From IMG/VR virus record IMGVR_UViG_3300049911_000129, positions 1 to 64,000 of that record: 64,000 nt of DNA. One strand, written 5' to 3'. Of the stretch, positions 1-21,270 are shown piece after piece (the stretch's first letter is position 1; each line of letters opens with the position of its first letter). A program made the position numbers and the translations under genes. The notes beneath the pieces were generated by a model. It was not told where the DNA came from, did no database searches, and saw nothing but the letters and a program-made list of their open reading frames with translations. Origin of the DNA: a virus.

Positions 1-3000
1 GCCGCGAAGGCGCTCGAGGCGGCCGGCTTCAAGCGGGCGACGTTCGACCCGGAGAGCATGGGCGGGCAGTACCGGGGAGGCACCTACAGGATATACTCGG
101 GCGGCAAGGGCTCGGACTACTTCCACGCGGACATCGCCAGGAGGGGGGCGGACGAGGCCAGGTTCAGGGAGGCGCTCGAGGGGGCGGGCTTCAGGGCGAG
201 GCCGATGGGGTCGGGCTTCCAGGTGGAGGAGTCCAGGAACAGCAAGGCCGACAAGGCCGAGATCATGGAGAGCCCCGTCTACGTCAAGCCGGGCCAGCCG
301 GTGCCGAAGGGGGTCGAGGTGCAGCACGGGCCGCGCGGGGGGACGTTCTACGACCCGCAGGTGAGCCCGTCGCAGGCCGGGCACCGGGTGCACATCCCGA
401 GGGACCTGCGAGACGTGGTCCTGGGCGAGACGCCCGTCTGCGCCTACTGCGGCACGTCGAGGGGGCCGTTCCACGCCGACCACATAGTGCCGGTGAAGGT
501 CGGGGGCAGGAACGTGAGGATCAACCTCCAGCCGGCCTGCGCGGCGTGCAACGAGGCAAGGGGCGCGAAGGACCCGTCCCGCAAGCTGGAGTGGATAAGG
601 TACGGCCAGAAGCAGATGCGCGACATCATGGGCCAGGTGCTGGCCAGGCCGCGCGTCGCGAACATGGTGAAGAAGGTCTGGGGGGACGAGCTGTGGCTGT
701 CCTCCCCGTCGCCGTACGCTTCGGCCCTGCTGAAGGGCGCGAGGCCTATCCACCTCGGCCCGGGCGACCCGGTCCCGGAGGGCGCGAGGGAAGTGCGCGG
801 CCCGAGGGGGGGCAGGTACTACGTTCCGGCCAGGGGGGATGCTGGGTCCGAACATGATAGCCGGGACACCAACAACGTCAAGGAACCGACGCAAGCGGAC
901 ACCGCCGAGTGGGCGAGGCAGGACGACGAGCGGGTGGCGCAGGTAAGGCGCAGGGCGCAGGAGCTGGACGACCTCGTGCAGCGCGTCTGGGTCGGGGACT
1001 GGACGAGGGGCAGGTTCGCCGAGACGGTCGCCGGGCTGCCGGACGACGAGCTCAGCAGCCTCAAGGGCTACGTGATCCCGAGGGCCATGCAGATGGTCGA
1101 GGGCAGGAAGGCCAAGGCCGCGCTCAGGGGCGCCCTCGAGACGGTCGAGAGCGAGCTCGGGTCCAGGGAGAAGTCGCTCATACACGGCACGCCGATCGGG
1201 AACCTTAAGGCCATCCTAAAGGTTGGGCTGCTAACCGACAAGGGAGCGTCCAACTTCAGCCTCTCGGCCCCGGGGGTGGTCTACCTTAGCCCGGAGACGA
1301 GGGACGGCAGGCAGCTGTCGCTCACCGTCGCCGCCGCGGCCGCCCTGGTGCACGGGGAGGACAGCTTCGCCGTGCTGCGCATCAGGATGCCGCGCAGGGG
1401 GCTCGAGACCGACCCGAAGTCCTTCGCCAGCGGCGGGATGCTCACGAAGCACGACGTGCCGCCGACTGCGGTCGTGGGCTACGAGGTCTACGACGCCAGG
1501 GACCTCAAGCAGATGTACGAGGACGCGGTCGCGGAGAGGGACGCCCTGTGCTCGCAGCACAACGACGACCCGAAGTACTGCGGGGACGGCCCGTGGGTCA
1601 GCCTCTTCGTCAACCGGTTCGACGACTACGTGCAGGAGAGGGGGATGCCCGAGCCGGTCCGCGAGGTCGACCTGACCGGCAGGCGGAAGGCCGCGGCCGG
1701 GGACATCTTCCTGGCCCCCGCGACAGGGGACACGATCAGGACGCTGCTGGGCTGCTTGCGCAACGAGGGCGGCGGAAGCGGCGATCTTGCGCAAGTCGGC
1801 GGGCTACGGAAGCAGGGGTTCACCCATGAGCACGATGGCTGGCCTAGGCACCCGATAGGCGTCAAGTACCACGACAAGTACTTCCAGGAGCACGGCGGGT
1901 GGAAGATCGGCATGCCGTCCGATGAGCCGGATAGCCCGTACGGCGACGAGAGCGCGGAGGACGAGCTCGACCGCAAGGTCGCGGGCTTCATAGAGGAGAT
2001 AGCCGCCGGCAGGTGGGACAAGGGCGCGACCTTCGCCATGGGCGACGACACGCTCAAGGCCCTGTGGCTGCGGCTCGACCTGGACCTCAAGACCGGCCGC
2101 GTCCAGTTCACCCTCGACACCAGGCGCGCGCGGGACCAGCTGAAGGACCAGGTCATGCGCAGGGGTCTGCTCCCGGGCACGCTGTCGGGTGAGTTCTACC
2201 GCGCCAAGAAGGCCGTCACGGACGGCACGGACTGGGCGATGGACAAGCGCGAGGCGCAGAAGGCCAGGCTCGCGGACGACCTCGGCAAGGCGGCGTTCGG
2301 CGGCAAGTCCCAGTTCGACCGCGCGGCGGACGTGGCCATAGCGGAGGCGATCGCCGCCGGGGTGCTGGAGCGGACCGCCCACGCGGGCTACCACCTGTAC
2401 AAGTATGTCAGCTACGCCGCGGTGGAGCCAGACGAGTCGGGCGCACCGTCATCGCCACCACATAGCAGGCCGATTGGCGGCCGGTGGGGGGTCATCCGGT
2501 GGATGATGGACAACAGCGAGGGGAGCGTCGACAAGCAGCGGTGGGTGTTCGAGATGGAGAAGGCGGCGGAGGGCGACAAGACGTACGCCCTGCTCGCCGA
2601 CATGATGCAGCTCAGCAAGACCGGGGCGACCGGGCTGAGGCAGGACCTGAGCGGCCTGTCGTACTGGCTGCACGCTGGCGGCGAGACGGCGATGTCCGAG
2701 ACGCTCGGCGCGGCCGCTGCTGGCATGATAGTGAAGACGTGGGCCAGGTCCGCTTCTGACCACCAGCCGCTCAGCATAGCCGTGCAGAAGGCGGCCGCCG
2801 CGGAGTTCGGCATGGCGACCGACATAGACGAGTGGACGGGGGTCGCCGCGAGGGACGAGGCGAGGGCGTTCCTGAAGGCGCACGGCGACGAGCTGAGGGG
2901 GTTCACCAGGAAGGTCTACGACCACACCCAGAGGTTCCTCAAGAAGCGCGGGGTGGAGGAGCTGACGCTGGCGCGCGGGTGGGGATGGGACCCGCACGAA

Positions 3001-5622
3001 ACGCCCGAGTGGTTCGTCGACATGGTCCGCGAGGTGCGGCACGACGCGTACTGGAACGGGGAGCCGCCCGCCAAGCCCCTGGGCGTCAGGAAGGCCGTAC
3101 AGCTCAACCCGATGTCGTCCTTCTCGACCGAGTACGAGCAGGCGCAGGCGTTCGCCACCGGGAGGAACGGGATCGTGACCATGGCGAGGGTGCCGATCTC
3201 GAGGGTCCTGTCCACGTTCATGACGGGCTTCGGGTGCGCGACCGAGAACGAGGTCATCGTCCTCGGGGGCGAGCTCGACGCGGTCCACCTCGCCGGAAGC
3301 TCGGAGTCGCTCCCCAAGGACCCGGACGACGCTGAGGACGTGCTGGCGGAGGGCGGGCTGAGGATAGGTGACGCGCAGGAGTGGCCGCCGCAGTCGCCGC
3401 TCTTCAACGCCGCTGAGGGCCCGCAGGCGGTCCCGCTGGACGCGGACGCGTACGACTGGCCCAAGCGGACCAGGGACTACGATCTGCATCAGGGCGATGC
3501 GAATGATAGTATCGCGGGGCTCGATAAGCACCTTCCCGGCCGGCACGACCAGGAGGACCACGGGAACGAGCACAGGCTGTCCGACGCGCACCCGGCGCTG
3601 GGCAAGATGACGGTCGGCTACGGGGGCGATAAGAGGGCGGCCACGGCGAAGGACTGGGAGAAGTACGAGGGGGAGGCCAAGACCAGGGTCGAGGAGTGGG
3701 CGGCCGGCGGCAAGTACGACAGGAAGATGGAGCCGGACGAGATCTGCTACGAGGGTTACCGGCTGAGGGCGAGCGCGAGGGGGAGGAGCGACGCCTGGAG
3801 CTGGGCGCTCTGGGAGGCCGTGCAGAGGTTCGCCGCGTCGAGGGGCTTCTCGTACATGGACGAGGTGACGGAGGACGACGTCTTCGCCGACCCGAGGATG
3901 CCGGAGCCCGAGAGCATCATAGACGACGACAAGGTCAGGGAGCGGTGGCAGGTGGCCGCGCACACGGCCGACAGCAGGCTGACGGACTACCGCAACTCCA
4001 ACAGCGCGAAGACGCTGCTCGACTTCATCAGGACGGAGAGCGGGGGGATGTGGCAGAGGCATTGCCAGCGCGACCTCTGGAACCTGGCCCGCGGGGCGGG
4101 GGGAGAGACGGTCCCGGTCGGCAAGAGGGGGTTCGGCGCCGAGAGGCACTTCGAGGAGTACAGGCCGTTCGCGGAGCCGGGCGGGCTCAAGGGCGCCAAG
4201 ACCTGGGAGGAGGCGCTGGACGCGGAGTTCACGGTCTACCGCGGCGTGGTCAAGGGGGACGAGGCGGAGAACGCCAGGCGCAAGCCGGTCGTCTCGTACA
4301 CGACCTCGCCCGAGATAGCCAGGCTCTTCGCCGAGGGATACTACCACAGCTACAACGTGCCGGGTCAGGGCAAGGTCTACCAGAGGACCTGCAGGCTGCG
4401 CGACGTGCTCAGCTACCTCAACCCGGACGGCGAGCTCGAGGTCCTGCTGAAGCCGCCGGGGAGCAAGGCCGAGAAGGCCTACGGCGGGTATTATACGAAT
4501 GGCGGGATCGCGTTCACGCACGAACATGGCGGGTTGCCGCGGCATCCTGCTGTCCTGAAGGACCACGCGGTTCTGGACAAGCGGTCGGGTGGCCGCGGGG
4601 GGAAGGTCTTCCTGGGCCCGGGCGAGAAGGCTCCGGAGGGCGTGGAGGTGCACGAGGGTCCGCGCGGCGGAAGGTGGTACCAGGGCGGCAAGGCCAAGGA
4701 GCCGGAGCCTGAGCCGAAGAGATCCACCACGTCGAGGCGCGTGCTGGAGGGCAAGACCCCGGAGCGGACGGAACTGGAGGGCGAGACGACCTTCGCGCAG
4801 GCCGGGCTGAGGGGAGGCATCTGGGGTTCGCAGACGGCCATCGCCGAGTGCAAGCCGGGCGTGCTTCCACACGTCGACGGGTTGTCAGACACGAGGCTCC
4901 TGCACAAGATGGTCCCGCAGGACGCTATAACCGAGTTCACGGTGTTCAGGGTCTTCGAGGCGCTCAGGCCGGGCTTCTGCCCGCCGGTCATGCTGGACGA
5001 CCTTCCCGAAAAGGACGACGTGGTGGACTCGTACTACTCGGATCGCCCGAAGGGGCACTCCATGAGGTGGGTGGACGAGGCCGGATTCGGCGGGACAGCC
5101 ATGACGTATGCGCAGTACCTGGCGCACCACGAGGGTCATGACGCCATGACCCCGGCGCAGGCCATGGACGCGGGGTTCATGAACACGGTTGACTGGCTGG
5201 TCTCCAACCAGGACAGGCACACCGGCAACATCATAATCGACGGCGACCGGCTCTGGCCGATCGACCACGGCATATGCTCCGTCGAGTCGATACCCTCCGG
5301 CAACTACGGCGTGGACTACTCGTTCAAGAGCCACCTCAAGGGGCCGAAGACGCTGCGCGCGTTCAGGGACTCGGCGCTCGCCGCGCTCAAGCAGATATAC
5401 GACGACGCGGACGAGGTCGCGTGGGTCATGGTGAGCAGGGGCGATACGCAGAAGAGCGAACGGGTGAAGGGTGTGGATCTCCTCCCGAAGAGTGCGGAGG
5501 TGATGGCCAGGTCGCTCAGGGCCGCGACCGGCAGGGCGGCGGAAGACCTGAACAGGTGGTACAGGGACGAGCTTAAGTACAGGAGGGAGATGCGCCAGGA
5601 GCGGGAGGCTAGGCGGCGATGA
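1..5622 (+). CDS. Giant multi-effector (polyvalent) head-region protein, 5'-partial: HNH, three ART-like domains, HipA/PI3-4K-like kinase, 3 copies of the GxRGG motif
   Basis: Frame is open from base 1 (AAKALEAAGF...). Motifs: CAYC..DHIVP..NLQPACAACN (HNH); HGT..NL..IL..GL..VYLS; RG..SSFST..A..FA..ENEVIVL; VYRG..SYTTS..A..FA..ELEVLL; NQDRHTGN..IDHG. Confidence 0.8.
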   Translation, partial: AAKALEAAGFKRATFDPESMGGQYRGGTYRIYSGGKGSDYFHADIARRGADEARFREALEGAGFRARPMGSGFQVEESRNSKADKAEIMESPVYVKPGQPVPKGVEVQHGPRGGTFYDPQVSPSQAGHRVHIPRDLRDVVLGETPVCAYCGTSRGPFHADHIVPVKVGGRNVRINLQPACAACNEARGAKDPSRKLEWIRYGQKQMRDIMGQVLARPRVANMVKKVWGDELWLSSPSPYASALLKGARPIHLGPGDPVPEGAREVRGPRGGRYYVPARGDAGSEHDSRDTNNVKEPTQADTAEWARQDDERVAQVRRRAQELDDLVQRVWVGDWTRGRFAETVAGLPDDELSSLKGYVIPRAMQMVEGRKAKAALRGALETVESELGSREKSLIHGTPIGNLKAILKVGLLTDKGASNFSLSAPGVVYLSPETRDGRQLSLTVAAAAALVHGEDSFAVLRIRMPRRGLETDPKSFASGGMLTKHDVPPTAVVGYEVYDARDLKQMYEDAVAERDALCSQHNDDPKYCGDGPWVSLFVNRFDDYVQERGMPEPVREVDLTGRRKAAAGDIFLAPATGDTIRTLLGCLRNEGGGSGDLAQVGGLRKQGFTHEHDGWPRHPIGVKYHDKYFQEHGGWKIGMPSDEPDSPYGDESAEDELDRKVAGFIEEIAAGRWDKGATFAMGDDTLKALWLRLDLDLKTGRVQFTLDTRRARDQLKDQVMRRGLLPGTLSGEFYRAKKAVTDGTDWAMDKREAQKARLADDLGKAAFGGKSQFDRAADVAIAEAIAAGVLERTAHAGYHLYKYVSYAAVEPDESGAPSSPPHSRPIGGRWGVIRWMMDNSEGSVDKQRWVFEMEKAAEGDKTYALLADMMQLSKTGATGLRQDLSGLSYWLHAGGETAMSETLGAAAAGMIVKTWARSASDHQPLSIAVQKAAAAEFGMATDIDEWTGVAARDEARAFLKAHGDELRGFTRKVYDHTQRFLKKRGVEELTLARGWGWDPHETPEWFVDMVREVRHDAYWNGEPPAKPLGVRKAVQLNPMSSFSTEYEQAQAFATGRNGIVTMARVPISRVLSTFMTGFGCATENEVIVLGGELDAVHLAGSSESLPKDPDDAEDVLAEGGLRIGDAQEWPPQSPLFNAAEGPQAVPLDADAYDWPKRTRDYDLHQGDANDSIAGLDKHLPGRHDQEDHGNEHRLSDAHPALGKMTVGYGGDKRAATAKDWEKYEGEAKTRVEEWAAGGKYDRKMEPDEICYEGYRLRASARGRSDAWSWALWEAVQRFAASRGFSYMDEVTEDDVFADPRMPEPESIIDDDKVRERWQVAAHTADSRLTDYRNSNSAKTLLDFIRTESGGMWQRHCQRDLWNLARGAGGETVPVGKRGFGAERHFEEYRPFAEPGGLKGAKTWEEALDAEFTVYRGVVKGDEAENARRKPVVSYTTSPEIARLFAEGYYHSYNVPGQGKVYQRTCRLRDVLSYLNPDGELEVLLKPPGSKAEKAYGGYYTNGGIAFTHEHGGLPRHPAVLKDHAVLDKRSGGRGGKVFLGPGEKAPEGVEVHEGPRGGRWYQGGKAKEPEPEPKRSTTSRRVLEGKTPERTELEGETTFAQAGLRGGIWGSQTAIAECKPGVLPHVDGLSDTRLLHKMVPQDAITEFTVFRVFEALRPGFCPPVMLDDLPEKDDVVDSYYSDRPKGHSMRWVDEAGFGGTAMTYAQYLAHHEGHDAMTPAQAMDAGFMNTVDWLVSNQDRHTGNIIIDGDRLWPIDHGICSVESIPSGNYGVDYSFKSHLKGPKTLRAFRDSALAALKQIYDDADEVAWVMVSRGDTQKSERVKGVDLLPKSAEVMARSLRAATGRAAEDLNRWYRDELKYRREMRQEREARRR
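274..351 (+). repeat. Protein motif copy 1 (PVYVKPGQPVPKGVEVQHGPRGGTFY)
   Basis: Read from the translation; follows SKADK-A. Confidence 0.85.
733..822 (+). repeat. Protein motif copy 2 (KGARPIHLGPGDPVPEGAREVRGPRGGRYY)
   Basis: Read from the translation; follows LLK. Confidence 0.85.
4579..4680 (+). repeat. Protein motif copy 3 (KRSGGRGGKVFLGPGEKAPEGVEVHEGPRGGRWY)
   Basis: Read from the translation; follows LDK. Confidence 0.9.
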
Positions 5623-6686
5623 GAGCGGTAGTGTATGCCCTGAAGGACGGCCGGCTGGAGCAGGTCGCGGAGGTGTTCGTGGACGGGCAGGTCAAGGGCC
5701 CGTTCGCCGGCGAGATCCGCGCGTGGATAGGGCACCATGGGTTGGACGGCGAGAAGATGCTGAGGGTCCTGGCCAGGCGGTGGACGACCGGCTACACGGC
5801 GGTCGAGCTGCTGGACGGAGACAGCAAGGAGGACAAGAGGTCCGGAGGCCGGGGCGGGAGGACGTACCTCGGGCCGAAGGAGGAGGCCCCTGCGGGAGTC
5901 GAGGTGCACCAGGGGACGAGGGGCGGGCGGTGGTACGAGGGCGGCAAGAAGGATCCGACCAAGGACTGGAAGATCCACCAGGACTACCCCAAGAGGGAGC
6001 CGAACCCGTACGAGGACTACGCGGTGAAGCCGAAGACGCACGAGGAGATCTTCGACCAGAAGTGGCACACCGAGCGGCTGGGCCAGTGGAAGAGCTTGGT
6101 CGAGGGGGTTGTCCTCGGCCTGCCGTTCGAGCACGCGGAGCTGGTGTCGGACGTGACCGTCACGAAGTACGGCAACAACGGGATAAGCGGGACCTTCGAG
6201 TCGGCGCTGGCCGGGGCGTTCGGCGTCCGGGTGCCGCGCGGGAGGATACTGCTGCGGTTCAAGGGCGCCCCGTTCAATGACACATTCCTTATGGAGACGG
6301 TCGCGCACGAGGTCGGGCACGCGGCGTGCAGGCTCGTCTTCTTCAGCGGGACGGACCACGACACGGAGCTCAAGAAGCGGGTCCTCAGGGCCTACCACAC
6401 CGCCTACAGGGCGGCCGGCAACGAGGCGCTGACGGAGATACACCACAGGCGCTACTTCGCCCCGGCCGCGGTAGCCGGCGCGAGGCAGGCCAGGGCCGTG
6501 TCGCCGTACTCGCTCAAGAACCCGGACGAGTTCTTCGCCGAGCACTACGCCTGGTACCGGATGCACCCGACGTCGCTGCAGGCGCTAAACGAGGAGATGT
6601 ACTCCATCATGAAGGGCGTGTACGGCGGGAGGGAGAACTTCGAGGTGCACCCGCAGGGCGGGCTGAAGAGGGGGCGATATGGATAG
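5619..6686 (+). CDS. Zincin metallopeptidase (lethal-factor/MPTase-like) carrying the GxRGG motif
   Basis: HEVGH (HExxH) at 6306-6320 and downstream SPYSLKNPDEFFAE motif. Start overlaps the upstream stop (ATGA). Confidence 0.75.
   Translation: MRAVVYALKDGRLEQVAEVFVDGQVKGPFAGEIRAWIGHHGLDGEKMLRVLARRWTTGYTAVELLDGDSKEDKRSGGRGGRTYLGPKEEAPAGVEVHQGTRGGRWYEGGKKDPTKDWKIHQDYPKREPNPYEDYAVKPKTHEEIFDQKWHTERLGQWKSLVEGVVLGLPFEHAELVSDVTVTKYGNNGISGTFESALAGAFGVRVPRGRILLRFKGAPFNDTFLMETVAHEVGHAACRLVFFSGTDHDTELKKRVLRAYHTAYRAAGNEALTEIHHRRYFAPAAVAGARQARAVSPYSLKNPDEFFAEHYAWYRMHPTSLQALNEEMYSIMKGVYGGRENFEVHPQGGLKRGRYG
5835..5936 (+). repeat. Protein motif copy 4 (KRSGGRGGRTYLGPKEEAPAGVEVHQGTRGGRWY)
   Basis: Read from the translation. 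Confidence 0.9.
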
Positions 6687-7101
6687 GATAGTGGTGAGGT
6701 CGCCGACGGGCAAGGTGGTCGGGGTCGCGAACGCGCGGCGCCTGACGCTGTTCGACAGGGAGCTGAAGGCGCACCTCGAGGAGGTCATGGCCTCCGGGCT
6801 GCCGATCGGCCCTGACGGCGGGCTGGCGAGGCCGTCCGTGTTCGCGCTGCTGGACTACCTCGGGCGGAGCGGCTACGAGGTGGTGTGGCCAAAGGGCAAG
6901 GTCGAGAAGGCGCCGGGGATCTCCGAGGACGGGAGCGAGTCGGCCGACCCGGGGCACGTGGTGGGCGACGGGAGCCCGGAGCTCGAGAAGGACTTCGGCG
7001 GGGCGGGCGCGCCGATGACGGGCGGCATGGTGAGCACCCCGGTCGCGGGCTCGGGCAGGAAGCGTCCGGGATGGTCAAGGGGGTTAAGACGTGGAAGATA
7101 G
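6679..7101 (+). CDS. Hypothetical head-region protein
   Basis: Coupled ORF; contains VEK-A and LEK-D sites like its neighbours. Confidence 0.6.
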   Translation: MDRIVVRSPTGKVVGVANARRLTLFDRELKAHLEEVMASGLPIGPDGGLARPSVFALLDYLGRSGYEVVWPKGKVEKAPGISEDGSESADPGHVVGDGSPELEKDFGGAGAPMTGGMVSTPVAGSGRKRPGWSRGLRRGR

Positions 7102-7288
7102 GATAAAGGCCCTCACGTGCCCGGTGTGCGGATCGACGGACTACACGTCGTTCGGCTGGTCGGTGACGTTCGACGGGATGATGGAGGCGCTGCTGAGGCA
7201 CGCGCGGGAGGAGCACCCGGGTCATGTCCGCGACGTGGGCGGCATCACCTACATCGACAGGATCCCGATGGTGGGGGACTGCGAGTAG
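7091..7288 (+). CDS. Small zinc-finger-like protein
   Basis: CPVC...HAREEH (C2H2-like). Confidence 0.5.
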   Translation: MEDRIKALTCPVCGSTDYTSFGWSVTFDGMMEALLRHAREEHPGHVRDVGGITYIDRIPMVGDCE

Positions 7289-7330
7289 GGGCTTCCAGCT
7301 AATGCGCCCGCGCGCAATAATGGAGACAGC

Positions 7331-7528
7331 ATGACGAGCAAGACCCATACGCGGAAGGTGAACAGGAAGTGCCCCAGGTGCGGGGAGGCCGTATGGACCG
7401 ACGACGGACCGTGCGGGGATGGGCTCTACTACTGCTACGAGTGCATATTGGGGGACCACTGCGGCTGCGAGCGACACGGGCCGCGCAGGCTCCTGAGGAG
7501 GCTCTGGGATGCCATTCGCAGGGTATAA
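7331..7528 (+). CDS. Small Cys-rich protein
   Basis: CPRC, CYEC and HCGC motifs; GGAG RBS upstream. Confidence 0.55.
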   Translation: MTSKTHTRKVNRKCPRCGEAVWTDDGPCGDGLYYCYECILGDHCGCERHGPRRLLRRLWDAIRRV

Positions 7529-10181
7529 GGACTTCGCGGACTGCACGAGCCGCAACCGGGACAAGGGCGACCCAGACGCCTACTGCGGGGCCATAAAGCG
7601 CGACACGGAGGACAAGGCCATGAATGAGGTGGTAGACCACGGCGGCATGATGGCGACCGTCGGTAAGGCCACGGCGGCTGCGCTGTCGCTGGCCACCGCA
7701 ATCTTCAGGGCCGGTCACCAGCCGCCCACGAGTTGGTCGGGCAGGCATGCCAACCGGGATAAGACATACCTGGCCCCGGGCGAGGAGCCGCCAGAGGGCG
7801 TGGACGTCAAGCAGGGCAAGCGCGGGGGTCGGTACTACGTCGGCCCGAAGCGCGGTCCGGGCACCGAGCACCCGTCGCCGGCGGGGGGCGGAGAGGACGA
7901 GACGCACGGCCCGGCGCGCGGGAAGACGCCGGTCAACCTCCCGGACGCGCGGGACGTGATGGACCAGGTCTGGGACCACTTCGGTCCGCAGTCCATTGCG
8001 ATGGCTGGCCACGCCGCGCTGGTGCAGGAGATCAAGCGCCGGGATCCGGGGCTGTCCAACGACGAGGTCATGAGGGCGGCTGACTCGCTGGCCAACATGG
8101 CGCGAACGCACGTCGAGGGGCACAGGGAGGAGGGGGAGGACATGGGCCCGGAGGAGGAGGTCGGCGGTCCGGCGATGGAGGAGCCGGAAGAGCCGGATGC
8201 TGAGGCGGAGGATCCGAATGAGCTCGAGGAGGAGGTCGGAGAGCTGACCAACCAGCTGACTGACATCCGCGACAAGCTGAAGGACATGGCCAGCATGTAC
8301 CCGTCGCTGCAGGCGACCATCGAGGCGTACATCATACCGGGCTTCGACGACCTGATCGGCGAGGGCCCGAACAGGAACCCGTACAACCAGAGCCTGACCG
8401 GACTGGTCGAGTCGCTGCGCGAGCGCCAGGAGGAGAAGCGCCAAAGCGAGGACGAGGAGCGCTACAGGAGCGAGACGCCGGAGTCCCGCAGGCGGCTGAG
8501 CATGTCGGTCGCGAAGGCGGGCGCCGAGGCGTTGTCGCTGGCGGCTGGCAATCAGGCTGCTGCGGATTCGCTCCACGGCGGGAATGGTCCACCACCGAGG
8601 GGCAAGCGCAAGCCGGGCGACAGCGAGTACGAGAGGCCGTACGGGCCGGGTGTTGGCAGGCGCGGCAGGGAGCCGAAGCAGGAGCCGAGCACACCGGCGG
8701 ACGAGGGCAACATCGCCGGAAGGCGCGAGGCGCAGGGCAGGCTGACGGGCGACGAGGGCAGGGGCAGGGCAGGCGGGCATGACCCAGGAGACGCGAAGAA
8801 CACGCGGACTCGCCGAGCCCGAGGCGGGCCGGACGAGCGTGCCCGCGAGAGGGCGAACGATCCGCACCCGGAGGATATGAAGGGCGGCAGGACCTACCTG
8901 GCGCCAGGCGAGCAGCCTCCGCCGGGGGTCGACATCAAGCAGGGCGAGCGCGGCGGGAGGTACTACGAGGGCGGCAAGCGAGGAGGTGGTAAGCCGCAGC
9001 CAGCGCCGTCGCAGAAGCCGCCGGTCAAGAACTACGGGGAAGGCGGGCCTGCGTTCACGCACGCGCCGACCGATCCGAGGCAGGCAGGCGGGAAGCCACA
9101 ACAGGGTCCGCAGGGCGGCAAGGAGCCGTGGTCCGACTTCGAGCCGGACACGTCCTCGTTCTCCACGGCAGCGATCAAGTTCGTCAAGGACTCGATAGCG
9201 GCCGGCAGGGGACTGGACGAGATCCACGCCCAGCTGCACGAGGCTGGCATGAGCCCGCAGGAGGCGCACGAGCTGGTCGGGATGGGGCTCAAGGGCGCGA
9301 AGCAGACGCCGGGCGAGTACGACCAGGGCAAGAGGCAGGACGCGAAGCCGCAGGGCGCGGGCAAGCCGAAGCCGTTCAATCGCGAGCTCGCTCGCCGGAC
9401 CAAGTTCTTCGTGGACGACATCGTCGGCCGGCTGGACGACAGGGACATGCTCGACGAGTATGACACCGGGATGATCGTCGACGAGGTCATGAACGAGGTG
9501 GAGTCCCAGGCGGGCGCCAAGACGCTCTCGCAGGATGAGTATGTCGCCGCCGGAAGGTACGCGGAGAAGCTGGTGCGCGCGAGGACGGGCGACCCGGACG
9601 ACGACCCGTGGGAGCCGAGCACGGGGGATGAGCAGCCGCAGGAGTACGGGCAGCCTCCCAAGCCGAAGTTCAAGAACGCCCCAGGGAGCAGGTTCAGCGA
9701 GCACGGTGACGCTCCGGACGGCAGGCACGTGAGCGAGTTCGAGGACGAGGACCTCAACCCGGCCGAGCTGTGGCAGAAGGTGGCGGGGCTAACCGAGGAC
9801 CACGATGACGAGGGCGCCAGGCGTACGGCAGGCAACATGGTCGGGAAGCTGGCCGCGGAGCTGGACGCCGCAAACAGGGTGTCGGCCGACCACGTGGAGG
9901 TGCTGGCGCGGAAGCTGGCATCTGCGTACCAGGGCGTGCCGAAGGAGTACATCGATGCTGCGCTCAAGCGGGTGCAGTCCGGGAAGGGGCAGGCGGGCGG
10001 CAACCGGGAGGCGGTCCGACGCTACGAGAACACCCGTCCCGAGGGCGCACCAGCGGGCGGCGGATACGCCATAGCGTACGACCCGAGGACGAAGCGGCAC
10101 AAGGTCATCCAGCACCCCAAGGGCGAGATGACCAGGGAAGAGGCCCAGCAGGACATGAAGGCGCGGAGGCGCCAGCGATAG
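7509..10181 (+). CDS. Large mosaic head-region protein with 2 GxRGG motifs
   Basis: 890 aa. N-terminal PFAGYKDFADC..DPDAYC mini-domain, low-complexity linkers, and a domain shared with the protease polyprotein. Confidence 0.75.
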   Translation: MPFAGYKDFADCTSRNRDKGDPDAYCGAIKRDTEDKAMNEVVDHGGMMATVGKATAAALSLATAIFRAGHQPPTSWSGRHANRDKTYLAPGEEPPEGVDVKQGKRGGRYYVGPKRGPGTEHPSPAGGGEDETHGPARGKTPVNLPDARDVMDQVWDHFGPQSIAMAGHAALVQEIKRRDPGLSNDEVMRAADSLANMARTHVEGHREEGEDMGPEEEVGGPAMEEPEEPDAEAEDPNELEEEVGELTNQLTDIRDKLKDMASMYPSLQATIEAYIIPGFDDLIGEGPNRNPYNQSLTGLVESLRERQEEKRQSEDEERYRSETPESRRRLSMSVAKAGAEALSLAAGNQAAADSLHGGNGPPPRGKRKPGDSEYERPYGPGVGRRGREPKQEPSTPADEGNIAGRREAQGRLTGDEGRGRAGGHDPGDAKNTRTRRARGGPDERARERANDPHPEDMKGGRTYLAPGEQPPPGVDIKQGERGGRYYEGGKRGGGKPQPAPSQKPPVKNYGEGGPAFTHAPTDPRQAGGKPQQGPQGGKEPWSDFEPDTSSFSTAAIKFVKDSIAAGRGLDEIHAQLHEAGMSPQEAHELVGMGLKGAKQTPGEYDQGKRQDAKPQGAGKPKPFNRELARRTKFFVDDIVGRLDDRDMLDEYDTGMIVDEVMNEVESQAGAKTLSQDEYVAAGRYAEKLVRARTGDPDDDPWEPSTGDEQPQEYGQPPKPKFKNAPGSRFSEHGDAPDGRHVSEFEDEDLNPAELWQKVAGLTEDHDDEGARRTAGNMVGKLAAELDAANRVSADHVEVLARKLASAYQGVPKEYIDAALKRVQSGKGQAGGNREAVRRYENTRPEGAPAGGGYAIAYDPRTKRHKVIQHPKGEMTREEAQQDMKARRRQR
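7761..7838 (+). repeat. Protein motif copy 5 (KTYLAPGEEPPEGVDVKQGKRGGRYY)
   Basis: Read from the translation. Confidence 0.9.
8880..8966 (+). repeat. Protein motif copy 6 (KGGRTYLAPGEQPPPGVDIKQGERGGRYY)
   Basis: Read from the translation. Confidence 0.9.
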
Positions 10182-10182
10182 C

Positions 10183-13100
10183 ATGAGGATAGACAAGTCG
10201 GTCGCGCACGACTGGTCGACCGTCCTGATAGACACGGTCCCGCAGGGGTCCGTGTCCGAGTACGGCCGAGTCAGGATCCTGTACAAGCAGGGGGGGCTGG
10301 CGGAGGACTACGAGCTGGTCATCGCCGGCTACGCGTCGCCGCAGGTCGTGGACCGCGAGAAGCACCTGATCACCAAGGAGGCCATGCAGGCCGACCTGCC
10401 GAGGTTCCTGGCGCACCCGCACTACCGGAACGCCATGATCGTCCACTCCAATATACAGGTCGGGGAGGTGCTCCCGACGTGGACCAACCCAGAGACTAAG
10501 GAGGAGTTCGCGACCAAGGTGGACGACCTCGGGCTCTTCTGCGTCATAAAGCTGCGGACCGACAAGTACCGCCCGGAGATCTGCTCCAAGGTCGAGAAGG
10601 ACGTGCGCGAGGGCAAGCTCGCGTCGTTCAGCATCTCCGGGGACGCCCCGTTCGACAGCAGGCGCCACGTCTGCAGCAGCGGGACGTGCTTCTGGATCAT
10701 CGACAAGATAGAGTTCTACGAGATAACTATCTGCGAGCAGGGCGTGAACCAGGACGCCAAGTTCGCGGTCCTGAGCAAGGCGGCGCACTGCGAGGACGGC
10801 TCGTGCGCGCTGCAGCTCCCGACGCCGTTGACCAGGTCCGCGCTTGCGTCTGCCATCTCCAAGGGCCGGACATACCTCGCACCAGGCGAGGACGCACCGG
10901 AGGGTGTGAACGTCGAACAGGGTCCGAGGGGTGGGCGCTACTACGAGGGCGGGGAAGAGGGCGGAATCGAGCCCGAGGGACTGGAGTGGCGCAACCTACA
11001 TCGGACAGGCGACACGGTGCAGGCCGAGGTAAAGGTGCGCGGCGTCGAGGGCGAGAGTCTGATGGTGCACCAGGAGAAGCGCCCGGCGGGACGCCGTTAC
11101 TGGGGCATGGGCGCCGAGACGTCAGGCTGGTCCGCCGGAAGGCCAGGGTCCTGGCACACGGGGATGACAAATATCAAGACCGCCAAGGAAATGGTTAAGG
11201 CGGCACCGCTGATTCAGGAGGCCGTCAACAAGCATCCGGGGGCGAACAGCGTGCGCGTGAGGGTCGAGCAGCAGGAAAACGGGTTGCTCAAGGTCTCGGA
11301 GTACGACCGCAATAAGTGGACCGAGCTCGTCGGTTCGCAGGCTAAGCCTGGAGCGGAGCCGACACAGGAGGGAGGCGGAAGTCCACTATCCTCCGAGGTC
11401 CACGATCTGGCGGTCAAGCTCGGTCGGCACGCCGCCGAGGCGGGCTGGACGCGCGAGGAGGCGCTGCAGTGGGCGCAAGGCGTGGCGGTCGACAACCGCG
11501 TCAAGGCGAGCGACGTCATGGCAGTAGCGGCCAAGGAGTGGGCCAGGGCGAGCACGGAGGCCAGGAAGCCGGCCAAGGCGCCGACGCGGTTCAACCAGCG
11601 CGGCCAGTCGGACCACGGCAACGTGACGGAGTTCGATGACGAGGAGCTCGAGCCGTTCGAGCTGATGCAGAAGATAAACGAGATCGACGATCCGGCGGTC
11701 GTGGCGGCGTCCGAGAAGGTCATGGTGGACAAGCTCGCCGAGGAGATATACATCGGCGCGCACGCCTCCGGCAGCTTCCAGAGCGCGGCGCGGAAGGTGG
11801 AGCAGAAGTACGGCCGGTTCGGCATGCCCGACGAGTACCTGGACGCGGCGGCGGATCAGGCGCGAAAGCGGAAGACCAAGCCGGAGCGCCAGCAGTGGCC
11901 GAGGCGCGGCGCGAGGCCGCAGGACGTCTTCGGGCTGCCGAGGCGCGGGTACGGGAAGTTCGGGAAGGCGGCGGTCGGCGGAGCGGGCGGCGCGATAACG
12001 CCGATCACGCCGATGCAGGGACCGGAGGCGGCCAAGGACCCGTCGAAGGCCGACATCGTGGGCGAGAAGGCGGGCGGCTCGGCGATGGGCCACGGCAGCG
12101 TGGGGGCGGTTGCGAAGGAGGGCCCGAGCGGTCCGGATAGCCCGCTGACCGAGGGCGAGGTCACGGTCGCGGAGGACTTCGCGGCGAGGATGTGGGAGAG
12201 CATGGGGCGGCCCCACGACTTCGGGCAGTTCAGGCGTGGCCTGGGCGTCGAGTGGGAGCACGCAGACGTCCTGGGCGGGGACTGGCTGAAGGTCGCGCAG
12301 GTCGTGCTGGACCACCTGGCGGAGGATGAGGCGTACTACACCAAGCTGGCGACCATCGAGAAGGGCATGGGCGTGCTTGGCCGGGCGGTTGCCAGGGCTA
12401 TCGAGAAGAGGTCGGGCGGGCGCGGCGGGCGCGTCTACCTGAAGCCCGACGAGAAGGCGCCGGAGGGCGTGGAGGTCCAGACGGGCCCGAGCGGCGGTCG
12501 CTACTATGACAGGAAGGGCGGTGGCGAGAAGCCGAAGGAGTCCGAGGCCGGGGAGAAGCCGCGCACGGGCGAGGGGAAGGGACCGGAGGGATCTGGTGTC
12601 GGTGGTGTCCCGCCGAAGGTTCAGAAGAAGATAGACATAATGAAGGGCAACCTCGAGGACTACGTCTATCGTCTCAAGCACGCCAACGAGAGGCGCGTGG
12701 AGATGGGCAACGAGTATTGGCACGAGCCGAAGTCATACGCCGCCAGGCAGGCGCACAAGGACATCGCGGAGTATCAGCGGAGGGTGTACGACCTGCAGAC
12801 TAAGCTGGAGGATTGGGAGGGCCTGACCGCTGCTCCTGATGACGTGGCGAGGGCCATCGAGAAGGGCGCACACTTCCAGAGGAGCCACTGGCACGCCAGC
12901 AAGATGGTTCGTGGGTACAGTTCGCGCTCGACCGGCTACGAGGTCGAGCCGCATAAGGGTCAGCTGCAGGTTAGATACTACATGGGCAACAGCGACTGGC
13001 GCAAGGAGGTGAGCCTCAAGCGGCTGGGTACCATGAAGGAGGCGCTCGAGGACGCCGGATATAACGTCAAGATGGAGGAGGACTACCTGGTGGTCGGTTC

Positions 13101-15453
13101 GGGCGGCAGGATCAAGAAGGCCGGGTTCGCCGGAGGCGGCGGGGCGGACGTGGGGAGCGGCTGGGCCGTGGAGGTACACGACCCGACGACGGCAGGCAAG
13201 AAGGGCGGCGTGATGAGCGACAGGAAGTTCGACGGGGTGGCCGAGCCGCACAGCCCGGGGCTGGTCGTGTCTCCGCCCGCGGGTCCGCTCGAGCAGAAGT
13301 GCCAGCACGGGTTCGAGAAGGGCGACCAGACGTGGGGCCCGGGAGACTTCGATTGGGCCGGGGACCAGGACGACGACGGGGATGTGGACGCGGACGACGA
13401 CGCGGTCGGGGCCGAGAAGGAGGACCGCGCGCAGATAGGCCAGGTCGCGAGGATCCCGCCGGTCCCGCAGATACGCAGGCCGAAGGCGCCGAAGCCGGCC
13501 GGGGTGACGTACAAGGCCGCGATTGACCCTAGCGAGACCACGCAGTTCAGTCCGACGTACGCGCGGGATGACGCGGCGGGCGGCGAGGAGTCCGAGGAGT
13601 ACTACCTGAACAAGCGATGCCCGCTGTGCGCGGCGCGCGACATCATAGAGGACGCGCTGGACGACCGGGGGATCTATGGCGCCATGTCCGAGGAGTTCCG
13701 CGGCGTGCTCAGGCACAGCCTCGCGGTCCTGCAGGCCGGGACGGGCGGGCTTGACTGGGTGCAGGGCGGAGGCTTCGTGGCCTTGTCCGACGACCACGCG
13801 TACGCCGGCTTCACGAGGCCCGGCTATGCGATCCCGATCGCGGGCGTCGCGGCGGCGATAGGCATGGCGGCGTTCGACCTGGGCGACGTGCGGATGGTCC
13901 GCAAGGCTGTAAAGGTCGGCAACCTGATACTCGAGACGCATCCGGTGGAGGAGCGCGAGTTCGCAGAGGGTCTGGCCGACATTCAGGAGAGGATGGCGCG
14001 CGAGCTCAACATCCAGATGGAGGGGGCCGAGGGAGGCCAGGAGCTGCGCAAGGGCTACCACGTCGGCTGGCTCGGGGACGCGCAGAGGACGCTGGAGAGC
14101 GTGAGGGCCGCGCTCGGCGGGATCAACCGGGACGCCATAGGCGACGAGCTCAAGGTCGCGTTGGACGCCATATCGGCGGACATGGACCACCTGGTTGGCT
14201 CGATCGGCGTGACGGAGCAGATGAAGGGCCAGGTGAAGGGCGTCGAGCCGGCCGCGCTGGACGTGGTGCGGACGGTCGCGAAGGACACCGAGGGCGACGT
14301 CAAGGCGGCCGACAGCGCGCTCGAGGTCGTGGACCCGGAGCGCATAGAGGCGAGGGCCGACGGCGAGAAGGACGAGATGAGCGACCCCGACCAGGTCGCG
14401 CACCCCTCCGAGGTGGCGGTGATGACAGGCGCGCCTCCGGGCGTCCCGACCGGCAACCAGGGCGCGAGCGTGGTGCACAGGGGCGAGGACGTCAAGTTCG
14501 GCGACTTCATAACGAGCAGGCTGCACAGGGTCTACTCCCAGACGGCCGACGACGTGATGGCGCTCGGGCACTTCGAGGACGACGTCGAGCGCAAGAAGGT
14601 CGGGGAGGCTATAGGCGAGGCATTGACCACGTTCAAGGAGGCGCTGACCAGGGACGGGCTGTTCGACCTGGTGCTGCCGTCCGAGGACGCCGAGCGGCTG
14701 CTCAAGGCGGTGATGCCTCCGCCGCGCGGGATAGCGAAGACCGACGAGGACTCGGACCTTTGGGGTGGGCAGAACAGGGGAGCCGGGGTCAGTCCGCTCG
14801 GTCCGACGACCGAGGCGCTGGACACGCTCGATCAGGGCCAGCACCCGGCGTACGGGTACAACAGGGACACCAAGCCGGAGGGGCTGACGAAGGACGTGGG
14901 TGCGCCGACCGCCGGCATGCCAGAGGCCGACGTGGCAGTGAACAGGGGCGTGGCGGTTGACAAGGAGCCGGAGGATCCGCTGGCGGTGGAGGCGTTCGAG
15001 ATGGAGCCGAGCGCGCCGAGGCAGCCAGACCCGGACTCCACGGCCGGGCATGTCGAGGAGAAGGACACGGGAGCGCGTAACGACCGATTCGTGGGCGAGC
15101 CGGATAGGGTGAGCAACAGCCGCCTGAGGAAGGATCCTGCGACCGACGAGCCGATGAACGTCAAGGGCGCCGGGGTCGGCAGGCGCAGCCAGTTCGAGGA
15201 CCAGGGTCCGCCGGGCGAGGTCGAGAGTCCGCAGCCGGTTCGCGAGCGCGAGTATGACAACAGGGGCGCACTGGTGCCGCAGTTGAACATGGGCGCGGAG
15301 GACGCGAAGGCGCTGTTCAAGCTCCACGCGTCGCTCTGGTCGCGGTACGTGAGCGACCCGCGGTTCGGGTTGGCCGTCATCGAGCTGGACGACGGGGGCA
15401 ACCCGGTGCAGATAGTGGACATAGCGAAGAGGACCGGCCATGGGCGCAGATAA
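10183..15453 (+). CDS. HK97-type prohead (capsid maturation) protease fused to a ~1550-aa mosaic extension (2 GxRGG motifs, DUF5661-like domain)
   Basis: IAGYAS..VD..MIVHSN.QVG..GKLASFSISG..EITICEQGVN..AKF at ~10309-10779. GVEWEH..DHLAE..YYTKL at ~12220-12363 matches the DUF5661 pattern. Confidence 0.85.
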   Translation: MRIDKSVAHDWSTVLIDTVPQGSVSEYGRVRILYKQGGLAEDYELVIAGYASPQVVDREKHLITKEAMQADLPRFLAHPHYRNAMIVHSNIQVGEVLPTWTNPETKEEFATKVDDLGLFCVIKLRTDKYRPEICSKVEKDVREGKLASFSISGDAPFDSRRHVCSSGTCFWIIDKIEFYEITICEQGVNQDAKFAVLSKAAHCEDGSCALQLPTPLTRSALASAISKGRTYLAPGEDAPEGVNVEQGPRGGRYYEGGEEGGIEPEGLEWRNLHRTGDTVQAEVKVRGVEGESLMVHQEKRPAGRRYWGMGAETSGWSAGRPGSWHTGMTNIKTAKEMVKAAPLIQEAVNKHPGANSVRVRVEQQENGLLKVSEYDRNKWTELVGSQAKPGAEPTQEGGGSPLSSEVHDLAVKLGRHAAEAGWTREEALQWAQGVAVDNRVKASDVMAVAAKEWARASTEARKPAKAPTRFNQRGQSDHGNVTEFDDEELEPFELMQKINEIDDPAVVAASEKVMVDKLAEEIYIGAHASGSFQSAARKVEQKYGRFGMPDEYLDAAADQARKRKTKPERQQWPRRGARPQDVFGLPRRGYGKFGKAAVGGAGGAITPITPMQGPEAAKDPSKADIVGEKAGGSAMGHGSVGAVAKEGPSGPDSPLTEGEVTVAEDFAARMWESMGRPHDFGQFRRGLGVEWEHADVLGGDWLKVAQVVLDHLAEDEAYYTKLATIEKGMGVLGRAVARAIEKRSGGRGGRVYLKPDEKAPEGVEVQTGPSGGRYYDRKGGGEKPKESEAGEKPRTGEGKGPEGSGVGGVPPKVQKKIDIMKGNLEDYVYRLKHANERRVEMGNEYWHEPKSYAARQAHKDIAEYQRRVYDLQTKLEDWEGLTAAPDDVARAIEKGAHFQRSHWHASKMVRGYSSRSTGYEVEPHKGQLQVRYYMGNSDWRKEVSLKRLGTMKEALEDAGYNVKMEEDYLVVGSGGRIKKAGFAGGGGADVGSGWAVEVHDPTTAGKKGGVMSDRKFDGVAEPHSPGLVVSPPAGPLEQKCQHGFEKGDQTWGPGDFDWAGDQDDDGDVDADDDAVGAEKEDRAQIGQVARIPPVPQIRRPKAPKPAGVTYKAAIDPSETTQFSPTYARDDAAGGEESEEYYLNKRCPLCAARDIIEDALDDRGIYGAMSEEFRGVLRHSLAVLQAGTGGLDWVQGGGFVALSDDHAYAGFTRPGYAIPIAGVAAAIGMAAFDLGDVRMVRKAVKVGNLILETHPVEEREFAEGLADIQERMARELNIQMEGAEGGQELRKGYHVGWLGDAQRTLESVRAALGGINRDAIGDELKVALDAISADMDHLVGSIGVTEQMKGQVKGVEPAALDVVRTVAKDTEGDVKAADSALEVVDPERIEARADGEKDEMSDPDQVAHPSEVAVMTGAPPGVPTGNQGASVVHRGEDVKFGDFITSRLHRVYSQTADDVMALGHFEDDVERKKVGEAIGEALTTFKEALTRDGLFDLVLPSEDAERLLKAVMPPPRGIAKTDEDSDLWGGQNRGAGVSPLGPTTEALDTLDQGQHPAYGYNRDTKPEGLTKDVGAPTAGMPEADVAVNRGVAVDKEPEDPLAVEAFEMEPSAPRQPDPDSTAGHVEEKDTGARNDRFVGEPDRVSNSRLRKDPATDEPMNVKGAGVGRRSQFEDQGPPGEVESPQPVREREYDNRGALVPQLNMGAEDAKALFKLHASLWSRYVSDPRFGLAVIELDDGGNPVQIVDIAKRTGHGRR
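10861..10944 (+). repeat. Protein motif copy 7 (KGRTYLAPGEDAPEGVNVEQGPRGGRYY)
   Basis: Read from the translation; follows ISK. Confidence 0.9.
12406..12507 (+). repeat. Protein motif copy 8 (KRSGGRGGRVYLKPDEKAPEGVEVQTGPSGGRYY)
   Basis: Read from the translation; follows IEK. Confidence 0.9.
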
Positions 15454-19388: not shown

Positions 19389-19598
19389 GTGTGGCGCGGG
19401 CTGAGGAGCAGGCTGCTGCGCAGGCTCGATAGGGACGCGATCGAGTACACCGGATCGACGCTGGTCGGCCACGTCATACTCGCGTGTGATCAGTGCGGCG
19501 CGCTTGTGGACTACCTCGAGCAGTCGGCAAAGGAGCCGTTCGGGTGGTTGTGCGGGCCATGCAAGGCTAGGGAGCAGGAGTGCCAGGAGACGACGTAG
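19389..19598 (+). CDS. Small Zn-finger-like protein
   Basis: CDQC...CGPC. Confidence 0.45.
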   Translation: MWRGLRSRLLRRLDRDAIEYTGSTLVGHVILACDQCGALVDYLEQSAKEPFGWLCGPCKAREQECQETT

Positions 19599-20347
19599 TA
19601 GACATCAGCGGCTGGGGCGGCGAACTCGACGTAGAGACCGTCCGCTGCTGGGCCAGGCAGGGGAAGCGGAAGGTCGTCGTCGGCGTGGGGCCGGATGTCG
19701 CGCTGGCGCGCAGACAGATGCTGGCGGTGCTCGCCGGCGGCCTGCTTCTGGAGGTGTACGTCTACCCGTACTACGAGGCCGACCCGGCGCGCTACCTCGA
19801 CCGCGTGGACGCGGCGACGGCTGGGCTGCAGGTCGGCTTCAGGTGGCTGGACTTCGAGGACACGGAGACGCTGCCTGGCGGGTACTCGTGGCAGTCGCTA
19901 GTGGTCCTGTGGGTCCACCAGTGCATGGGCGAGGCCACGGCGAGGTGGGGCGCAGAGAACATAGGCCTATACACCGGGGCGTGGTGGTGGCGGGAGTACA
20001 CCGACGACAGCGTGGATCTCGCCGGCTGGCCGCTGTGGGCCGCGGACTACGACCACGAGGCGAACGCGTCGTTCACGCCGTTCGGCGGCTGGATGGCATG
20101 TAGGCTGAAGCAGTACAGCGGGACCACCGAGCTCTGCAGGTTCTCGGTGGACCTGGACTTCGAGGGGGGATACGAGATGGACGTGGAGACGGAGAAGCAG
20201 CTGAAGCGGAGCATGGCGTTCCAGCGCTGGGGCGCGTTGATCACGACCGGGGAGGACGCCCAGGTCGAGCAGGCCCTGCGCGAGCTGATATACGTCAGGC
20301 TGCTTGCGGGCCTGCCGGCGATCCCGCCGGTGCCGGAGGACAAGTAG
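19580..20347 (+). CDS. Endolysin, GH25 muramidase
   Basis: VDISGW, WLDFED (DxE), GLYTGAWWW, PLWAADY, KQYS, VDLD. Confidence 0.85.
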   Translation: MPGDDVVDISGWGGELDVETVRCWARQGKRKVVVGVGPDVALARRQMLAVLAGGLLLEVYVYPYYEADPARYLDRVDAATAGLQVGFRWLDFEDTETLPGGYSWQSLVVLWVHQCMGEATARWGAENIGLYTGAWWWREYTDDSVDLAGWPLWAADYDHEANASFTPFGGWMACRLKQYSGTTELCRFSVDLDFEGGYEMDVETEKQLKRSMAFQRWGALITTGEDAQVEQALRELIYVRLLAGLPAIPPVPEDK

Positions 20348-21038: not shown

Positions 21039-21270
21039 GTTTCAGAATACAGGTGCTTGAGATATACTGTAGGTAGCGGTCCCAGGAGGCCAGATCTCTT
21101 CAACCTCTGCGCATACGCCGGGATCTTGGACCTGCCTCTGGACCGCTTCCATATGCTCGTGTGCGCGCGCAGGGGCTTCTTTTTTGTTACGGTTGCTATA
21201 CAATTAGGACTGCAGTGTGTTAGGGGCGGGCTATGCTCGCGACTTCAACTACAGGAGGCACAGGGAAAGC

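Follow-up and report, generated by a model that had tools for sequence, protein, structure and literature searches.

A recurrent mini-domain in polyvalent head-region proteins of an uncultured virus, a candidate capsid-loading tag

Why would four neighboring genes in the head region of a virus, each assembled from unrelated domains, share one short motif? The question is raised by the first 64 kb of the 99,994-bp IMG/VR viral record IMGVR_UViG_3300049911_000129. This whole stretch of 64,000 nucleotides (nt) is called the window below, and the four open reading frames (ORFs), all on the + strand, are called A–D (Table 1). An initial annotation made from the sequence had described these ORFs, counted eight copies of a motif in them, and suggested that the motif is a capsid-loading or DNA-binding tag on effectors that are cut apart in the prohead and injected at infection. 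The four ORFs are present as described. We find that the motif is a real, portable, and undescribed module, which we call the mini-domain, and that it is viral, accessory, and rides on one capsid lineage. We infer that A–D belong to the virion module of an uncultured high-GC bacteriophage (window GC content, 65–69%) and are polyvalent proteins, or polyproteins, punctuated by this new mini-domain. Judging from their sequences, we lean tentatively toward the reading that they may be polyvalent cargo polyproteins with a new folded loading tag, which would be cut by the head protease and ejected with the DNA.

The mini-domain and its family

The window was analyzed with a hidden Markov model (HMM) built from the copies found by regular expression. 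On the six-frame translation, this HMM gave exactly eight strong matches (i-Evalues of 1e-13 to 1e-17), and all other matches had E > 1. The matches begin at the starts listed for copies 1–8 in Table 1 (nt 742 for copy 2), within ~18 nt of the positions given in the initial annotation. No further copy was found in the whole record, whose other ~84 kb lack the motif. The motif is 29–31 amino acids (aa) long and follows the pattern [LI]xK[AGS][RK][VI]YLxPGExxPxGVxVxxGxRGGxYYE, and the lysine said to precede it is present 2–10 residues upstream in each window copy. Residue identity between the window copies is 38–72% and DNA identity is 53–75%. Where two copies share a residue, the codon differs in 48% of cases, so the motif is kept by protein-level selection and not by recent DNA duplication.

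Larger units containing the mini-domain also recur. Residues 460–826 of C are homologous to residues 228–564 of D (28% over 388 aa; window 8886–9986 and 10864–11874); this stretch, the mini-domain followed by an uncharacterized ~300-aa domain, is duplicated between the two genes. DUF5661 followed by the mini-domain forms a recurrent two-part unit (window 12217–12510 and 52–354; also P0087, P0092, P0018, and P0056), and the two window units, A aa 18–118 and D aa 672–776, are 29% identical. In P0092, this unit comes after a protease domain.

When 1.84 billion representative proteins were searched with the HMM of the eight copies, 455 clusters (50% identity level) were found at E ≤ 1e-3 and 61 at E ≤ 1e-10. 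A total of 234 motif instances were located in 149 listed proteins of this search, with one obvious repeat artefact left out. Their logo reads [LI]-[EK]-K-[AGS]-[RK]-[VI]-Y-L-K-P-G-E-x-[AP]-P-x-G-[VA]-x-V-Q-x-G-P-R-G-G-x-[YF]-Y-E, in which Gly, Pro, and aromatic residues occupy the invariant positions. Behind the motif, the sequence is rich in Gly, Glu, Pro, Lys, and Ser, like disordered linkers. Nearly half of the listed proteins (72 of 149) carry two to four copies, with 315 aa as the median spacing; behind the last copy, the tail has a median length of 238 aa. The single-copy proteins that start with Met and have at least 150 aa mostly carry the motif within their first 110 residues (46 of 66), and several listed proteins start directly with it (M-SKARVYL and similar).

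The motif had not been recognized in the initial annotation as a described signal, and comparison with known domains agrees. Motif pieces of 40 or 73 residues had no match in Pfam at E ≤ 10, NCBIfam gave no match, a profile search of PDB chain sequences returned nothing at E ≤ 10, and the ESM Atlas held no usable neighbor. None of the LPD families of Iyer et al. present in Pfam matches the motif, and an exact-string search of the literature returned only antibody sequences. In PHROGs, the motif occurs only in phrog_24083, which is annotated as "unknown function" and is built on gp115 of HCTV-1-like haloarchaeal siphoviruses. Searches of 50,697 phage records by tblastn with one 35-aa copy, with P0005, and with P0001 gave no motif match; P0049 as the query retrieved only protease domains of Streptomyces phages and no motif match. 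A WW-domain-like assignment, suggested by the PxGxE...G.xYY spacing, was dropped, as no Pfam profile supported it.

The fold was modeled with AlphaFold2; the input alignment contained 35 motif units, which came from the window, from IMG/VR loci, and from short proteins in databases. In the model of copy 7, three short strands (TYLA, VNV, and GRYY) were formed, ~24 residues had a predicted local distance difference test score (pLDDT) of ≥90, and both flanks were disordered. An independent model of the whole ORF B contained the same three strands. Here, the mini-domain lies between two low-confidence linkers, with an alpha/beta domain (aa 1–65) before it and a helical HEVGH domain (aa 136–337) after it. 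Foldseek found no significant structural neighbor of the mini-domain (best E value, 4.6). The mini-domain is thus predicted to be an autonomous unit of ~30 residues, with three beta strands, Gly/Pro turns, and an aromatic YY core.

Payloads, head proteases, and the lysine site

The initial annotation had placed an HNH nuclease, an ADP-ribosyltransferase (ART)-like module, a kinase, and a metallopeptidase behind the motif, and a prohead protease among its carriers. The HNH domain of A is solid; it was matched by Pfam and many PHROGs, and a phmmer search of A, C, and D against the PDB added only this domain. The zincin of B is supported by an HExGH...E(F/W)(F/W)AE signature that is invariant in a seven-member alignment and by a weak Foldseek likeness (E ~0.02) to M34/PPEP-type zincins. 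The ART-like (1.2e-4) and PI3/4-kinase-like (7e-3) stretches of A fall below the Pfam cut-offs, while DUF5661 in D is above its cut-off. In relatives, the stretches behind the motif include GNAT, DRAT-like ART, HEAT repeats, topoisomerase IB, rubrerythrin/EncFtn-like, and zeta toxin plus glutaredoxin domains; Iyer et al. list domains of these kinds for polyvalent proteins (PMC5512222). The position claimed for the motif, usually N-terminal to diverse enzyme payloads, therefore holds across HNH, ART-like, zeta-kinase, GNAT, zincin, and topoisomerase IB domains.

The N-terminal part of D belongs to the prohead serine proteases, as indicated by the phrog_23555 match over aa 41–201 and by conserved His and Ser motifs; HS(N/D) and S(F/Y)SISG align with gp119, the protease of the cultured haloarchaeal virus HVTV-1. 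The domain is ~30% identical to the annotated proteases of HVTV-1, HCTV-1, and HCTV-5 (tblastn, HVTV-1 and HCTV at 4e-11), and the Pfam Peptidase_S78 match is below the cut-off (0.0072). Other giant proteins that carry the motif (P0069, P0082, P0119, and P0125) also contain the protease domain of D, either in their middle part or at their end, and the mini-domain directly follows the protease domain in D, L014, and P0049.

The residues before the fold conform to [LIV]-x-K-[AGS], with K in 149 of the 234 instances and a small residue next to it in 134. The same pattern, written below as [LIV]-x-K/[SAG] with a slash at the putative cut, recurs at two other places. In the capsid proteins of the clade, it lies 8–35 residues from the start, ahead of a conserved PRTLADWL block (ILNK/S in the window). 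In nine divergent proteins, including HVTV-1 gp119, [VL]xK/[SA] closes the protease domain: VLSK/A in D, VVSK/A in gp119, KLAK/S in P0049, P0054, and P0092, and VLK/S in L017. A second lysine site and the motif follow within six residues of the protease-end site in L014 and P0049. In HK97, the protease cleaves the capsid protein between Lys103 and Ser104. Because of this precedent and the recurrence of the pattern at capsid N-termini and protease-domain ends, [LIV]-x-K/[SAG] is probably the cleavage site of this protease lineage. The claim that the polyproteins are cut into tag-plus-payload units thereby becomes plausible at the sequence level. The logo of the 234 instances contains no conserved site behind the motif; therefore, if the proteins are cut, each released fragment would keep the mini-domain at its N-terminus.

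A second junction motif, [IVL]-[ED]-K-HLPGxHDQxxHG, was also observed. It occurs once in A (window 3526–3564), twice in the 1673-aa ORF of L013 (aa 598 and 1103), and twice in the 799-aa ORF of L022 (aa 46 and 296), with [LIV]-[ED]-K before it each time. HLPGxHDQxxHG is also found at the very N-terminus of P0150, and, like the mini-domain, it always stands behind the lysine pattern. It may serve as an alternative tag or bind metal.

Genomic setting and competing readings

The motif is nearly confined to viruses. With a degenerate DNA pattern for GPRGGxYYE, 15 IMG/VR stretches were retrieved, 13 of which (14 contigs) were confirmed by the HMM. These range from 30 to 69% GC and often have two to five neighboring ORFs that each carry the motif. 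Among prokaryotes (one genome for each of 185,579 species), only two of 44 pattern matches were real, and both lie on short contigs from DPANN archaeal bins. One of these contigs (L131, Pacearchaeota-binned, 7.7 kb) has five consecutive ORFs, each with the mini-domain in its first 100 residues, and is probably a viral fragment in an archaeal bin. Among the payloads of these ORFs are zeta toxin plus glutaredoxin and a DRAT-like domain.

As the initial annotation had implied by assigning the carriers to the head region, the motif lies mostly in the portal-to-capsid interval; a portal or MuF gene comes before it and a capsid gene after it in L014, G001, G004, G005, G007, and HVTV-1. The order in L014 is a portal-MuF fusion, an unknown ORF, the motif-carrying protease, and the capsid gene. 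In HVTV-1, terminase is followed by gp112, gp113, "head assembly" gp114, gp115, gp116, protease gp119, and capsid gp120. The motif is at residues 17–46 of gp115, which is annotated as a zeta toxin, and two copies are at the C-terminus of gp116. Because the phrog_24083 profile covers gp115 and gp116 as a single protein, the gene may be split in HVTV-1; in this region (L009/L162, HVTV-1 72556–73512), an HNH endonuclease gene in the opposite orientation comes directly behind gp116. The window's own capsid family, phrog_24667, was found in eight of the 13 motif-bearing IMG/VR records. The five others are 5–62% complete (two >40%) and include L019 and L027, which are not confirmed motif carriers. 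Every virus that carries the motif and has a reasonably complete genome has this capsid family. The capsid clade joins haloviruses with marine archaeal viruses (bioRxiv 10.1101/2021.05.26.445827). Capsid proteins of motif-bearing viruses share only 24–27% identity despite the strong conservation of the motif. G007 is a close relative of the window virus, with a capsid protein 86% identical to that of the window, and has only four copies in differently built ORFs, which indicates that the block of motif genes turns over quickly.

Here, we propose a scheme for which we infer the protease specificity, capsid binding, packaging, and ejection. The precursors, including the carrier of the protease, would be co-assembled into the procapsid through the mini-domain, which would bind a conserved interior partner such as the capsid protein, the scaffold, or the portal. 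The S78-type protease would then cut at the [LIV]-x-K/[SAG] sites, which stand directly in front of the mini-domains, in the N-terminal part of the capsid protein, and where its own domain ends. The cuts would free units of tag, flexible linker, and enzyme, which would stay in the head and exit with the DNA at infection. An address label fits the N-terminal bias of the mini-domain, its one-per-payload spacing, its place after the protease domain, its association with one capsid lineage, and its near absence from cells. The HK97 protease carries a capsid-targeting tail behind its protease domain.

A competing explanation is that the mini-domain is a processing module, an exosite or marker that presents the lysine site to the prohead protease or the zincin, and that its sole role is to define cuts. 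The conserved [LI]xK[AGS] immediately N-terminal to the fold, the location at module junctions, and the presence of both peptidases in the same block are in line with it, and peptidase processing of polyvalent proteins has been proposed by Iyer et al. (PMC5512222). However, the lysine sites of the capsid proteins and of the protease-domain ends have no mini-domain, so that cutting seems independent of the fold, which should then have a role of its own. Moreover, proteins beginning with the motif have nothing upstream to be removed, and the lysine is missing in about a third of the instances. We consider this explanation unlikely. We give still less weight to a role after delivery or on nucleic acid, in which an RGG/aromatic module would anchor cargo on the packaged DNA or on a universal host target and thereby take every payload to one place. 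The invariant RGG-YY and the frequent Lys and Arg of many copies speak for such a role, and the distribution in archaeal viruses and a likely bacterial virus fits a universal ligand such as DNA. Nevertheless, the net charge of the 29-aa core varies from −5 to +10 and tracks that of the carrier protein (r = 0.57), and the haloviral copies are strongly acidic, which makes a conserved DNA-binding role less likely and weakens the initial idea of a basic DNA-binding tag. In addition, conservation is highest at Gly, Pro, and aromatic positions, which is typical of the core of a fold rather than of a basic surface, and no known nucleic-acid-binding family in Pfam or NCBIfam matches the mini-domain.

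Several observations weigh against the cargo-tag reading itself. In three window copies, KRSGGRGG replaces K-[SAG]. The lysine pattern is short, and its excess is only about two-fold in A (8 versus 4.7 expected) and D (11 versus 5.5). No clear motif copy is present in gp119, the HVTV-1 protease, and some motif genes of G010 (165 kb) and G014 (172 kb) are outside the portal-capsid interval. The motif is present in only four of 14 further records of the same capsid clade of ≥30 kb, and in only two of seven that are ≥90% complete. Since many viruses of the clade thus lack it, the capsid does not require the motif, which is accessory. These absences and the motif genes scattered in large genomes would also suit a lineage-specific spacer or oligomerization bead without an addressing role, in proteins that may be late cytoplasmic enzymes. 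Yet a mere spacer would hardly be so strongly conserved across viruses of such different GC content and such divergent capsids, nor does it fit the N-terminal bias, the repeated adjacency to the head protease domain, or the near absence from cellular genomes, and we rate it as the least probable of the alternatives, marginally below the role on nucleic acid.

The cargo-tag reading remains our preference. A broader version of it, which we regard as possible and more doubtful, is that the mini-domain is a transferable cargo-loading handle for a widespread family of HK97-fold capsids in archaeal and bacterial viruses, a counterpart of the encapsulin peptides. If so, together with a lysine-specific head protease, arbitrary enzymes could be plugged into the head like beads on a string, and fusing the 30 residues to any protein would load it into such capsids; a portable tag could thus serve to load proteins into phage capsids. 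How head proteins are selected in tailed viruses without a T4-like core is largely unknown, and the mini-domain is a concrete candidate for an address label. It also offers a handle for spotting candidate injected effectors in metagenomes, namely anything downstream of the tag, and it suggests [LIV]-x-K/[SAG] as the cleavage rule for this protease lineage. As gp115 and gp116 of HVTV-1 carry the motif, the idea is directly testable in a cultured virus.

Table 1. Positions of ORFs A–D, their domains and putative sites, and context genes in the window
Feature	Position (nt)	Strand	Description
ORF A	1..5622	+	1873 aa, 5'-truncated (contig start); polyvalent, with DUF5661-like segment and HNH, ART-like, and kinase-like regions; three mini-domain copies
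ORF B	5619..6686	+	355 aa; N-terminal alpha/beta domain, linker, mini-domain, linker, HEVGH zincin
ORF C	7509..10181	+	890 aa, without family match; two mini-domain copies
ORF D	10183..15453	+	1756 aa; prohead protease domain, mini-domain, ~300-aa domain common to C, DUF5661, mini-domain, ~980 aa of unknown function
Mini-domain copy 1	268..354	+	A aa 90–118; followed by HNH domain
HNH endonuclease domain	439..567	+	A aa 147–189; PF01844, 2e-8
Mini-domain copy 2	739..825	+	A aa 247–275; LLK/G in front
DRAT-like (ADP-ribosyltransferase-like) stretch	3088..3276	+	A aa 1030–1092; 1.2e-4, 21.9 bits versus Pfam cut-off of 25
Second junction motif, K-HLPGRHDQEDHG	3526..3564	+	A aa 1176–1188
Mini-domain copy 3	4597..4683	+	A aa 1533–1561; DKRSGGRGG in front, kinase-like C-terminus behind
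Mini-domain copy 4	5853..5939	+	B aa 79–107
Zincin-like metallopeptidase domain	6024..6629	+	B aa 136–337; HEVGH at nt 6306–6320
Mini-domain copy 5	7755..7841	+	C aa 83–111
Mini-domain copy 6	8883..8969	+	C aa 459–487; MK/G in front
S78-type prohead serine protease domain	10303..10785	+	D aa 41–201; phrog_23555, 2.6e-12
LSK/A, putative self-cleavage site	10771..10782	+	D aa 197–200, C-terminal edge of protease domain
Mini-domain copy 7	10861..10947	+	D aa 227–255; ISK/G in front
DUF5661	12217..12363	+	D aa 679–727; 5.9e-9
Mini-domain copy 8	12424..12510	+	D aa 748–776
GH25 muramidase	19580..20347	+	Context gene; points to bacterial host
Acidic low-complexity ORF, candidate scaffolding protein	21217..22164	+	Directly upstream of capsid gene; assignment from position and composition
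Major capsid protein	22177..23574	+	N-terminal LNK/S at nt 22195–22206, pattern kept across clade

Downstream of D, the window encodes the scaffold candidate, the capsid protein, the tail tube, and tail genes. The host of the virus is probably a bacterium, because a GH25 muramidase and, in a tail-region protein, an M23 peptidase are encoded and the window proteins are not acid-rich. The muramidase gene and a 655-aa ORF without family match (17190–19157) lie between the protease polyprotein and the scaffold and capsid genes, an unusual position for a lysis-type enzyme. A full RNase HII domain (Pfam, 2.3e-29; 33274–33864) is found among the tail genes, and an 878-aa ORF (49001–51637) combines an N-terminal domain of the uracil-DNA glycosylase superfamily with a 3'-5' exonuclease and a family A DNA polymerase. 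Outside the window, the contig of the record (G000) has a portal gene at 72078–74054 and ends within an ORF of collagen-like repeats (99347–99994). As this portal gene is ~26 kb before the contig end, the portal-to-capsid interval of the lineage is ~50 kb or more; it is 58 kb in the relative G007, and the usual head module is far shorter.

Comparison with known systems

The general scheme, in which the head carries polyvalent enzymes that a head protease processes, is known from the internal proteins and Alt of T4, from the P1 Dar system (PMC12810830), and from the ejection proteins of SPN3US and phiKZ (PMC10052503), and has been predicted for polyvalent proteins (PMC5512222). Like A–D, the polyvalent proteins of Iyer et al. 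2017 are giant, combine unrelated enzymes (nuclease, ART, kinase, GNAT, and zincin), are encoded beside virion genes, and are associated with an assemblin-like or zincin peptidase; packaging and injection have been predicted for them (PMC5512222). The present proteins conform in three respects. At least two disparate activities are found per protein (A, HNH with DRAT-like and kinase-like; D, protease with DUF5661 and an uncharacterized part), the genes are virus-encoded beside virion structural genes (in the window and likewise in L014, G001, G004, G005, G007, and HVTV-1), and a peptidase is associated (the HExGH zincin of B and the S78-type protease of D). In contrast, a repeated junction mini-domain is absent from the survey, which places the assemblin-like peptidase at C-termini only and notes that polyvalent proteins are scarce in archaea (PMC5512222), whereas the A–D family has such a mini-domain, its protease is N-terminal (D) or internal (P0069, P0082, and P0119), and it includes a haloarchaeal virus.

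In P1 Dar, a polyvalent anti-restriction enzyme of ~2000 aa is also in the head, and a head protease trims its partners; however, DarB is loaded via DarA and Hdf, dedicated adaptor proteins bound inside the capsid (PMC12810830), not by a repeated intrinsic tag, and there is no sequence relation. In the giant phages SPN3US and phiKZ, the prohead protease acts on many proteins inside the head, which have N-terminal propeptides and are ejected, as proposed here, and the same source treats T4 propeptide targeting beside the processed ejection proteins of SPN3US. Their cleavage is at A-x-E, in contrast, the propeptides have no shared folded motif, and the proteins are encoded by separate genes, not as tagged polyproteins (PMC10052503).

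The capsid-targeting sequence of T4 (internal proteins IPI–III and Alt; gp21 protease) resembles the mini-domain as an N-terminal address on unrelated cargo; the processing of that cargo by a head protease and the injection of an ADP-ribosyltransferase would be further shared features. In T4, the signal is a short linear peptide. It binds the scaffolding core, and a T4-type protease removes it by cutting at L/I-x-E. The mini-domain differs as a predicted folded beta unit of ~30 residues that is repeated inside polyproteins, has a lysine site in front, and is accompanied by an HK97/S78-type protease of phrog_23555; it therefore does not belong to the T4-type targeting sequences. Unlike the T4 signal, which is removed, the mini-domain apparently stays on the payload, given that no conserved site follows it.

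The cargo-loading peptides of encapsulins are likewise short portable elements that bring diverse enzymes, including ferritin-like ones, to the interior of an HK97-fold shell, and one member of the mini-domain family has a rubrerythrin/EncFtn-like payload. Encapsulin peptides are unstructured, usually C-terminal, and uncoupled from a protease, and they have no sequence similarity to the mini-domain. Set beside these systems, what is new here is a folded, repeated, and strongly conserved 30-residue unit that constitutes a large unannotated family, its coupling to a lysine-type site, and its spread over an archaeal virus and a likely bacterial virus.

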